DNA from: Escherichia coli | Lineage (GTDB): Bacteria > Pseudomonadota > Gammaproteobacteria > Enterobacterales > Enterobacteriaceae | Strand: one strand, 5' to 3' | Length of the DNA stretch: 64,000 nt | NCBI RefSeq assembly: GCF_048403405.1 | Contig: NZ_CP183129.1 | Shown here: positions 37,708 to 39,391 of the stretch, one piece after another | How the letters are laid out: every line of letters begins with the position of its first letter | Numbering within the stretch: position 1 is the stretch's first letter | The notes under the pieces: generated by a model | What the model was told of the DNA's origin: nothing | The model's input: the letters and a program-made list of their open reading frames with translations, nothing else | Database searches by the model: none | Translations under genes and position numbers: made by a program

Positions 37708-38291
37708 TGGCATTCAGAATGAGTGAACAAGCACGGACCATAAAAATTTATAATCTGCTGGCCGGAACTAATGAATTTATTGGTGAAGGTGACGCATATA
37801 TTCCGCCTCATACAGGTCTGCCAGCAAACAGTACCGATATTGCACCACCAGATATTCCTGCTGGCTTTGTGGCTGTTTTCAACAGTGATGAGGCATCGTG
37901 GCATCTCGTTGAAGACCATCGGGGGAAAACGGTTTATGACGTAGCGTCAGGGGACGAGTTATTTATTTCTGAACTCGGTCCGTTACCGGAAAATGTTACC
38001 TGGTTATCGCCGGAAGGGGAGTTTCAGAAGTGGAACGGCACAGCCTGGGTGAAGGATACGGAAGCAGAAAAACTGTTCCGGATCCGGGAGGCGGAAGAAA
38101 CAAAAAACAACCTGATGCAGGTAGCCAGTGAGCATATTGCGCCGCTTCAGGATGCTGCAGATCTGGAAATTGCAACGGAGGAAGAAACCTCATTGCTGGA
38201 AGCCTGGAAAAAGTATCGGGTGTTGCTGAACCGTGTTGATACATCAACTGCACCTGATATTGAGTGGCCTACGAACCCTGTCAGGGAGTAA
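37707..38291 (+). CDS. Tail fibre assembly protein (Tfa)
   Basis: 194 aa, directly after fibre gene. Confidence 0.8.
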
Positions 38292-38342
38292 TCATTGGGA
38301 TTATGCCGCAGCACGTCTTAAGCAAGAACGTGCTGCGGTTGG
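38127..38342 (+). repeat. Direct repeat copy 1 (tfa 3' end plus terminator hairpin)
   Basis: About 216 bp, roughly 90 percent identical by eye to 39175-39391. Confidence 0.7.
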
Positions 38343-38356
38343 ATGCTATTTTTTCC
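38316..38356 (+). terminator. Hairpin terminator after tfa
   Basis: 10-bp stem ccgcagcacg/cgtgctgcgg then T-rich tract. Confidence 0.5.
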
Positions 38357-39014
38357 CTGAAGCGGAAAACATTACTACAGTACCTTGAACCTTGGTTTTA
38401 ACATTCTCGAAATGCTCTGAGAGTATATGTGTTAAGCCTTCTTCGGAATCTTTTGTGTTTGAAAAGATGCCTTTCTGATTGTAAATGCGCATCAGTTTTT
38501 GACCGAAGCTATTGTGCACAACTCCATCGCCAAGAATTGTGGCTCCGTATAGAGTTCCATCGTCAGTTAAGGCCTGCGCCGCATTGCGTATTACACAGCT
38601 TTTTGTAGATATATTTCCAGGCAGGCAGTGAAGAAGGTAAAACATGGAAATGGAATCAAATTGACCATGTAACGCCGCGGGATAAGGTTCAAAAACATCA
38701 TGGCTAATTTTATGTTTAATTTTTGATTCCCCAGCCCTTGTAGATGCCGCGTTCAGGCTAGCTTCGTTCAAATCCATTAAAGATATCAGACTACTCTCAG
38801 GTACGTGAGTAAGGTAAAACCCAGTTCCAACACCAATATCCAGATGGTTGTTACCTACATGTTCCAGAAAGTGTGGAAGAAGGTGTTCCTTTGTAGGACA
38901 TCCCCATGCAAGCCGATTTGATACTCCCAAAACCCACCAGTCATAAAGCTTTAGGGTAAGTGGTGTGTAAATTTTAGCCCCATCATCTGTGTTTTTTTTC
39001 ATTGATTTCACCAT
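38346..39014 (-). CDS. Class I SAM-dependent methyltransferase (moron, substrate unknown)
   Basis: 222 aa; motif I LDIGVGTG; AT-rich relative to flanks; opposite strand to tail genes. Confidence 0.7.
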   Translation of the reverse strand: MVKSMKKNTDDGAKIYTPLTLKLYDWWVLGVSNRLAWGCPTKEHLLPHFLEHVGNNHLDIGVGTGFYLTHVPESSLISLMDLNEASLNAASTRAGESKIKHKISHDVFEPYPAALHGQFDSISMFYLLHCLPGNISTKSCVIRNAAQALTDDGTLYGATILGDGVVHNSFGQKLMRIYNQKGIFSNTKDSEEGLTHILSEHFENVKTKVQGTVVMFSASGKK

Positions 39015-39070
39015 GTTATAGTTTTATTTGTGAATTAAATCAATTATGGCGATGAATTACAAGGGGTTAA

Positions 39071-39340
39071 ATGCTGCCGCAGCATAGCGATATTGAAATA
39101 GCCTGGTATGCTTCGATACAGCAGGAGCCGAATGGCTGGAAGACCGTCACCACACAGTTCTACATCCAGGAATTCAGTGAGTATATTGCGCCACTGCAGG
39201 ATGCTGTAGATCTGGAAATCGCAACGGAGGAAGAAAGATCGTTGCTGGAGGCATGGAATAAATATCGGGTATTGTTGAATCGTGTTGATACATCAACTGC
39301 ACCTGATATTGAGTGGCCTGCAAATCCTGTCAGGGAGTAA
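39071..39340 (+). pseudogene. Orphan tfa C-terminal fragment
   Basis: Last ~55 aa near-identical to Tfa C-terminus; N-terminus unrelated and too short. Confidence 0.5.
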
Positions 39341-39391
39341 TCATTGGGATTATGCCGCAGCACGTCTTAAGCAAGAACGTGCTGCGGTTGG
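39175..39391 (+). repeat. Direct repeat copy 2 (tfa 3' end plus hairpin)
   Basis: See copy 1. Confidence 0.7.

Follow-up and report, generated by a model that had tools for sequence, protein, structure and literature searches.

The subject of this analysis is a gene cassette of 1,049 bp in a 64,000-nucleotide stretch of Escherichia coli DNA (contig NZ_CP183129.1 of assembly GCF_048403405.1), the whole of which is called the window below. The cassette contains a gene on the minus strand for a class I S-adenosylmethionine (SAM)-dependent methyltransferase of the YbcY family (38346-39014; 222 aa as called in the list of open reading frames, or ORFs, with Pfam and PHROG matches). It is bracketed by two direct copies of the 3' end of the tail fibre assembly gene tfa (37707-38291, +, 194 aa; phrog_105 "tail fiber assembly", 8.8e-101, and so annotated in RefSeq at a near-identical locus). 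Copy A (38126-38342, +) is the end of tfa itself together with its stop codon and a hairpin, and copy B (39175-39391, +) contains the end of a short ORF resembling tfaX and a second hairpin. The element is the ybcY cassette, a moron of E. coli lambdoid prophages which is already catalogued in the DLP12 prophage of strain K-12. It is considered fairly probable, as a complete explanation, that ybcY is a moron which recombination at the 3' end of tfa moves between phages, which has a promoter of its own, and which encodes an enzyme for the O-methylation of a small molecule.

The moron concept (Hendrix/Juhala) has as its examples lom and bor of phage lambda and the cargo that lies downstream of tail-fibre genes. 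The cassette resembles the morons of lambdoid phages in that it adds a lower-GC gene with candidate signals of its own to a slot downstream of stf-tfa, and it differs from those that are inserted bare in that a duplicate of the 3' end of the upstream gene, 217 bp long, flanks it and provides portable homology. The guanine-plus-cytosine (GC) content is 41% in the methyltransferase gene and 27% in the 56-bp divergent spacer (39015-39070) between this gene and the tfaX-like ORF, as against 48% in tfa, 48-52% over the tfa/stf range and 51% in the prophage and the host, so both gene and spacer have the deviant base composition expected of a moron. The gene is also missing in collinear sister phages, in which the flanking genes are then adjacent, and lambda has a single copy of tfa.

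Membership in the YbcY family is supported both by the protein and by its position. Residues 5-222 match the whole of phrog_2132 (model positions 1-218 of 218) at 4.2e-157, the window protein is 100% identical to a protein cluster with 6,589 member sequences (the family is represented in RefSeq by WP_000240999.1), and the gene lies between tfa and a tfaX fragment and is convergent with tfa, as in K-12 DLP12. Phage PhiR26_1 labels the same methyltransferase "putative uncharacterized protein YbcY". In the record of K-12 MG1655, the DLP12 cryptic prophage has the order tfaD-ybcY(pseudogene)-tfaX-appY-ompT, and the segment tfaD-ybcY(b0562)-tfaX(b0563) has the same gene order, orientation and tfaX N-terminus as the window; the core of the cassette is 99% identical between the two, with 9 differences in 832 nt. 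K-12 ybcY is classed as a pseudogene because a 2-bp deletion removes the ATG of Met5, whereas the gene in the window is intact. The right-hand repeat copy of K-12 diverges after CGTGT(T/G)GA, lacks the hairpin, and is followed by appY-ompT, while that of the window runs through the hairpin to a dinI-like gene in a full-length prophage that appears to be inserted in yecE. A sequence-only reading of the window had correctly described an AT-rich, opposite-strand gene for a class I SAM-dependent methyltransferase with the motif LDIGVGTG, but the novelty that it implied does not stand, since it had not recognized a known module of DLP12 that is present in most E. coli genomes.

Prevalence and selection

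At least 80% of a query covering window positions 37700-39720 is found in 752 of 5,426 complete E. coli genomes, where the annotation reads tail fiber assembly, class I SAM-dependent methyltransferase, partial tail fiber assembly and DinI-like. The unique core of the cassette (38343-39174) is more widespread: at 95% identity or more it occurs in 3,843 of the 5,426 genomes, or 71%, and a single genome can have as many as four copies. The core is further carried by 14 lambdoid phages of E. coli that have been isolated and are viable, among them 2G7b, ev243, the PhiR series, Turner and Kati. Among 50,697 phage records, 14-15 carry the methyltransferase gene. DLP12 is named in the literature as the commonest prophage of E. 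coli (PMC10057817), which explains part of the prevalence of the cassette.

An account under which this abundance has no functional meaning is that the gene is selfish or neutral baggage, made common by hitch-hiking with DLP12 and by recombination at the tfa 3' end, and of no benefit to the lysogen. The prevalence of DLP12 agrees with this, as do the identity of at least 95% among all E. coli copies at the DNA level, which indicates recent spread, the state of the K-12 copy, which is a pseudogene without known consequence, and the presence of truncated forms in the databases. Against it, the ratio of nonsynonymous to synonymous substitution rates (dN/dS, Nei-Gojobori) is 0.11-0.22 against five relatives and 0.17 against the copy in strain Nissle, which implies that the methyltransferase is under purifying selection. 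All of the residues that are invariant in the family are retained in the window protein, and in the Nissle/B2 argU remnant the gene stands intact (218 aa) next to ompT, despite the decay of the phage and the loss of almost all of its other genes. The baggage account is therefore regarded as unlikely, and ybcY is better described as one of the commonest cargo genes of E. coli prophages, maintained by purifying selection. That the copy in K-12 is dead may explain why the gene has escaped study; a known substrate would give one y-gene a function and might bring to light a trait of lysogenic conversion.

The methyltransferase and its predicted chemistry

The fold and class of the protein are clear. 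Motif I, LDIGVGTG, with its GxGxG pattern, lies at residues 58-65 of the 222-aa ORF, an acidic residue ends beta-2, and the sheet is seven-stranded; the Pfam matches (Methyltransf_12 at 6e-9, and Methyltransf_23, _25, _11 and _31) are generic class I domains only. An AlphaFold2 model (predicted local distance difference test, pLDDT, 95.6; predicted template modelling score, pTM, 0.91) has a single domain, consisting of a seven-stranded Rossmann core with an N-terminal helical lid. PHROG 2132 and most homologues are 218 residues long, and the 2-bp deletion of K-12 falls exactly at Met5; the true start is for these reasons likely to be Met5, at 39002, giving a protein of 218 aa. No signal peptide or hydrophobic N-terminal segment is obvious in the sequence, which together with the single-domain model suggests that the enzyme stays in the cytoplasm and is not a secreted effector.

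An exhaustive HMMER search of 1.84 billion representative sequences returned 1,326 clusters at E<=1e-3, of which 197 reach E<=1e-30; almost all members are about 215-235 aa long and align end to end. In an alignment of 77 family members, Y24, D81, H129, G157 and D189 are invariant, W37, C39, H57, C130, P132, G133, K138, T159 and N186 are nearly so, and "LLHCLPG" is a hallmark of the family. The bacterial and fungal members are 40-50% identical. Homologues at 56-68% identity (Salmonella, Enterobacter, Erwinia, Klebsiella, Aeromonas) are mostly chromosomal, those at 79-90% lie on insertion sequence (IS)-rich, plasmid-like or island DNA, and the homologues are monocistronic, with unrelated neighbours. 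No homologue was found in other phage groups. From these settings and the confinement of the gene to one group of phages, its origin appears to be one recent capture of a mobile enterobacterial orphan.

The structures nearest to the protein are mostly those of methyltransferases for small molecules. The matches obtained with Foldseek against the PDB are to a phosphatidylethanolamine N-methyltransferase (PmtA; 8ys9, TMq 0.67), JHAMT, phosphoethanolamine methyltransferases (PfPMT), SgvM, NodS and CysG/BelI, and DhpI is also among the nearest solved folds, while searches of PDB sequences, with the single sequence or with a profile, gave matches confined to the Rossmann core. Close matches in AFDB50 are to bacterial orphans and to many fungal proteins (34-47% identity; template modelling score, TM, about 0.9), among them "Methyltransferase verB" of Penicillium polonicum, a vrtF-like protein, a lichen O-methyltransferase and VatX of Moorena. 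When the Aspergillus homologue was used as the seed of another large protein search, the matches had generic names only.

The only characterized relative found is VerB, a fungal pyrone O-methyltransferase (A0A1V6NVX3), which belongs to the same family and has a similar length (37% identity over the full length, 225 aligned columns, TM 0.88/0.86, E 1.8e-25). Its counterpart DovB has been shown experimentally to O-methylate the hydroxyl group of an alpha-pyrone, and AurB, CtvB and AstB are reported to do likewise (PMC12312803). The fungal enzymes VerB/DovB, AurB and CtvB are encoded in polyketide synthase (PKS) gene clusters and have a defined substrate, whereas in phages and enterobacteria the gene is a monocistronic orphan: neither PKS genes nor other genes of biosynthesis lie near it in the window or in the 12 homologue contexts that were opened.

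A further indication of chemistry comes from CysG/BelI (PDB 9FCD, 9FCE), which the family profile matches better than any other PDB sequences (E 6e-7). These are carboxyl O-methyltransferases in which a His-His-Asp motif binds a catalytic divalent metal, Ca2+ (PMC11408123). In the HMMER alignment His129-Cys130 of the YbcY family falls exactly on the His-His pair of CysG, and the invariant Asp189, further downstream, is a candidate for the third metal ligand. The similarity to CysG/BelI is confined to the Rossmann core, however, the second His is replaced by Cys, and their substrate (3-isopropylmalate) is not implied for YbcY.

On the basis of these relationships, the balance of evidence leans slightly towards YbcY being a small-molecule O-methyltransferase, possibly metal-dependent through His-Cys(-Asp), which acts on a hydroxyl, enol or carboxyl compound. 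The substrate would be a small and probably metal-chelating compound with one of these groups, made or met by the lysogen; catalysis would use the invariant His129 and the near-invariant Cys130, perhaps with Asp189 as a candidate metal ligand, and Tyr24; and methylation would alter a metabolite of the host or the environment to the benefit of the lysogen. A more specific version, which is put forward as speculative and has perhaps a modest chance of being correct, is that the family constitutes an unrecognized group of metal-dependent (His-Cys-Asp) small-molecule O-methyltransferases that E. coli has domesticated from a prophage to methylate a gut or host metabolite or the toxin of a competitor, and thus confers on most E. 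coli strains a chemical-defence or niche trait which K-12 has lost. The link between the family and the fungal pyrone O-methyltransferases, and the alignment of His-Cys with the metal motif of CysG/BelI, may not yet be in print.

An alternative is that the enzyme modifies a macromolecule and not a metabolite, the candidates being tRNA, rRNA, DNA and proteins such as the tail fibre or a host factor. The lone 218-aa Rossmann domain with its helical lid, however, has no nucleic-acid-binding or target-recognition domain. The window protein matches no DNA-methyltransferase family of Pfam, and among the 77 family members a single one matches MethyltransfD12, weakly (6e-3); no PADLOC defence-system model fits. 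The family occurs as stand-alone proteins in fungi, Pseudomonas, Enterobacter and others, far from phage, and the small number of phage records that carry the gene shows that it does not serve a general phage function. A macromolecular target is thus thought quite improbable. Still less probable is that the enzyme is a phospholipid N-methyltransferase like PmtA, which would methylate phosphatidylethanolamine in the membrane of the lysogen and so alter the cell surface or membrane: the fold match 8ys9 is just 16% identical in sequence, and the NCBIfam model for PmtA (NF045882) scores 15.7 bits against a cutoff of 390. The other NCBIfam matches are likewise far below threshold (RquA 16.9 against 175, CpaM 18 against 180), so the protein falls into no curated family.

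The tfa repeat and the movement of the cassette

A repeat search of the locus finds one long direct repeat, 38115-38345 against 39164-39394 (231 nt, 90% identical, spacing 1,049), and pairwise alignment defines a core, copies A and B, that is identical at 199 of 217 positions, which bears out, with matching coordinates, the near-identical direct repeats from the tfa 3' end in the sequence-only reading. In each copy the 54 terminal codons of tfa are followed by the stop codon and the hairpin, and 166 nt of copy A are coding. All 18 mismatches lie within 38133-38276, and the final 66 nt are identical; the 5' part of copy B (39175-39280) has 15 diagnostic differences from copy A, while the 3' part is close to it. 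The chance that the repeat is an assembly artefact or a fortuitous similarity is negligible, because the K-12 reference, the 752 closed genomes that cover at least 80% of the 2-kb query and sequenced phages all have this structure, and because chance could not produce 92% identity over 217 nt. An invertible tail-fibre segment of the Mu G or e14 P type was also considered and rejected, since the repeats are direct, the second copy of tfa is only a fragment, and no invertase gene was seen between stf and dinI.

The coding part of copy B lies in the tfaX-like ORF (39071-39340, +, 89 aa), in which a unique N-terminal segment of about 35 aa is fused to a C-terminal fragment of Tfa; the 54 residues of this fragment match the Tfa C-terminus at 50 of 54 positions, as expected from the earlier suggestion that the second copy retains the end of tfa. 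A PHROG family, phrog_2341, matches the ORF over its full length (4e-61), while matches to the Tfa families are limited to residues ~29-87, and another, small PHROG has just the first ~36 residues in common with it. RefSeq annotates the ORF as a partial tfa pseudogene, and the K-12 annotation names it tfaX. The ORF has the same N-terminus at all loci compared but a variable C-terminus (61 aa in K-12, 66 aa in 2G7b, 101 aa in PhiR26_1), which is the product expected of recombination inside a patch of homology, and the ORF is most likely a recombination remnant. The tfaX copies are all too similar to one another for a test of selection.

The hairpins at the end of the two copies (38306-38338, between the convergent tfa and methyltransferase genes, and 39355-39387) each have a perfect 11-bp stem and an 11-nt loop, with folding energies of -24 to -28 kcal/mol on either strand and z-scores of -3.0 to -5.2 relative to shuffled sequences; for the first hairpin the values are -28.3 (+) and -25.4 (-) kcal/mol, with z of -4.4 and -5.2. 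It lies 7 nt past the stop codon of the methyltransferase gene and 14 nt past that of tfa. These structures had been taken in the sequence-only reading for terminators; stable hairpins are indeed present in both copies, but no U-tract follows directly after the stem, as it would in a canonical intrinsic terminator, and a terminator scan gave no call at them. The first hairpin could nonetheless end or stabilize both convergent transcripts, as its placement suggests. Phage lambda has the same hairpin in the same place, with differences on both arms of the stem that preserve pairing when the sequences are read against each other, so the structure appears to be conserved.

Rfam models were also matched in this region. 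The hairpins (38275-38337 and 39322-39386, +) give weak, partial matches to CssrB, at about 33 bits against a gathering threshold of 76, which suggests that CssrB, a Shigella chromosomal small RNA (sRNA), was defined on a related tfa-end hairpin. The candidate E. coli sRNA IS009 (RF02111) matches 38050-38248 (+) at 225 bits, against a gathering threshold of 117, and the tfaX copy at 39094-39297 (+) at 112.5 bits, just under that threshold; because the model is mostly unpaired and the match lies on the same strand inside a coding sequence, it probably reflects conserved tfa coding sequence.

The divergent spacer contains candidate sigma-70 promoters in both directions. A consensus match on the minus strand, TTAACC-16-CATAAT, is directed leftward towards the methyltransferase gene, and TTGATT-17-TATAAC, as read in the window sequence, lies immediately upstream of the tfaX-like ORF and is directed rightward. 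By genomic SELEX (systematic evolution of ligands by exponential enrichment) the ybcY/tfaX spacer of K-12 has been listed as a constitutive RpoD promoter, with binding of H-NS noted, and the hexamer pair given for it is the TTGATT-17-TATAAC pair (PMC3946193). Promoter-like sites are no more frequent in the region than in shuffled sequences, so the matches are suggestive only. The methyltransferase would be transcribed in the lysogen from its own predicted promoter, independently of late phage transcription, and silencing by H-NS may apply, by analogy with K-12.

Comparison of the slot across prophages yields both filled and empty alleles. A synthetic query for the empty junction, in which 37900-38342 was joined directly to 39392-39760, was found uninterrupted in 78 genomes, which cover 100% of it and are up to 99.6% identical to it. 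EC190329 (stf 1008 aa, tfa 194 aa) and O104:H4 strains have the same prophage at the same yecD-aspS site, with stf, tfa and the dinI-like gene in order and without the methyltransferase; at two cassette-free loci (L014 and L025) the dinI-like gene follows directly after the tfa hairpin. The limits of the insertion/deletion polymorphism thus coincide exactly with the repeat, as would fit a cassette gained or lost through homologous recombination at the tfa 3' end. The tail-fibre genes in front of filled slots differ, and the prophages concerned occupy at least three integration sites, one of them ompW/yciE-trp. In 2G7b, which has a different tail-fibre set, the left copy is fused to a different upstream ORF, from which it follows that the cassette moves between tail modules.

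The two ends of the cassette differ in their constancy. At the left junction the hairpin is joined through GGTTGGATG to the stop codon of the methyltransferase gene, and this arrangement is near-constant in the window, K-12 (which is the same bar single-base differences), 2G7b and Nissle, and is partly kept in O157. The right copy is variable: 2G7b diverges at the same motif as K-12, again without the hairpin, while the window and many other genomes continue through it. Nineteen diagnostic sites separate copy A from copy B, and exchange between the two types can be followed at these sites. At the 15 upstream sites (38133-38231) copy B of the window has the same base throughout as the right-hand copy of PhiR26_1, and the right copies of 2G7b and K-12 match it at most or at about half of these sites; the left copy of strain 09-02E has switched to copy-B bases at 38271, 38273 and 38276; and copies in locus L001, PhiR26_1 and K-12 show switches between the two types, that is, they are mosaics. 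Such mosaic copies, as read from the alignments, are the mark left when homologous exchange or gene conversion takes place repeatedly at the conserved end of tfa. With the cassette-free sister prophage and the junction exactly at the repeat boundary, they uphold the view in the sequence-only reading that the gene was acquired by recombination at tfa.

In the proposed mechanism, the cassette brings its own patch of tfa 3' homology in the form of tfaX. One crossover that joins donor tfaX to recipient tfa, or two crossovers in the flanking sequences, would transfer the methyltransferase gene and leave the resident tfa undamaged, and recombination between copies A and B could delete the cassette. 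By virtue of its own copy of the tfa 3' end, the cassette can enter or leave, by ordinary homologous recombination, any phage that has this conserved sequence, with tfa remaining intact. The cassette is a clean and countable case of lambdoid phages swapping cargo at a conserved gene end; its repeat structure illustrates known mosaic recombination, not a new mechanism. The exact empty-site allele and the mosaic pattern of the two copies may not have been described in print.

Several observations weigh against the explanation of the cassette as a mobile moron with an O-methylating product. The two empty alleles that were compared have copy-A bases at 19 of 19 sites (in L014 base 38343 is also directly of this type), so they are better read as never inserted or as replaced than as products of excision from the window allele. 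Excision by recombination between the repeats, as proposed in the sequence-only reading, would fit a polymorphism bounded by the repeat, and the event may have been a gain or a loss. No neighbouring gene is conserved among the 12 homologue contexts (56-90% identity), which give no clue to a pathway. The literature on ybcY consists of incidental mentions, with no ybcY-specific phenotype, and a search with the RefSeq accession gave no match; in one assay that is mentioned, a mutant of K-12 ybcY, already a pseudogene, behaved as wild type.

The cargo of the slot in the relatives that were opened comprises OmpT, AppY, an alpha/beta hydrolase, Mn-catalase and YciEFG-like genes, and IS66. The secreted effectors that the sequence-only reading had placed there were not seen among these relatives. 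In O157:H7 SS52 (locus L027, 2293-4506) a block encoding Mn-catalase and yciE-, yciF- and yciG-like stress genes lies between tfa and the methyltransferase gene and forms a second cargo in the same slot; a partial hairpin adjoins the methyltransferase gene, and IS66 follows tfaX. In Nissle (locus L028, NZ_CP148105.1, 3967-6857), at the argU tRNA-Arg gene, DLP12 is cut down to an int fragment, a tfa fragment, the methyltransferase gene and ompT.

Other features of the prophage and the flanking DNA

The prophage is a full-length lambdoid prophage which fills the window from about position 1 to about 39,900 and adjoins yecD (40059-40640, -) and aspS (40935-42707, +). In the RefSeq annotation of a 99.5%-identical locus, a truncated ORF (window ~39959-40063) abuts yecD; this ORF appears to be a fragment of yecE, and the prophage is accordingly read as inserted in yecE, a known integration site for some Shiga toxin (Stx) and lambdoid phages.

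To the left of tfa is the side tail fibre gene stf (34681-37707, +, from the ORF list). Between 35056 and 35781 it contains a 33-nt unit (GCNGCGAAAAC/TTCAGAAACGAATGC...) five times at irregular spacing, and these units encode an Ala/Ser/Thr-rich repetitive segment of the fibre. The right-hand neighbour of the cassette is the dinI-like gene (39456-39704, -; NCBIfam PRK10597, 2e-20). Upstream of it lies a pair of LexA-box-like sites (CTGT-N8-ACAG, 39720-39735 and 39748-39763), one of which overlaps a promoter-like TTGACA-18-AAAAAT, and from these motifs this phage homologue of dinI is probably under SOS control. The interval from dinI to the host junction contains, at 39788-39849, a cluster of four or five GGGGCA(T) motifs, including a 21-nt near-repeat with a spacing of 41 nt; the cluster may be part of the attachment region or a binding array for the integrase or a regulator.

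Elsewhere in the prophage, a cluster of phage tRNA genes (Met-CAT, Arg-TCG and Arg-TCT, 13230-13479) is followed by the sRNA STnc100 (133 bits, 13556-13755), a combination typical of the late-regulatory region of Stx-like lambdoid prophages. In the early region, isrK (68.6 bits, 7265-7341) lies beside a C4 antisense RNA (82.3 bits, 7366-7453), both on the plus strand, and the pair is read as a c4 antisense immunity module of the P1/P7 type. The host part of the window contains the Hfq-binding sRNA STnc490 (146 bits) at 52813-52936 on the minus strand.

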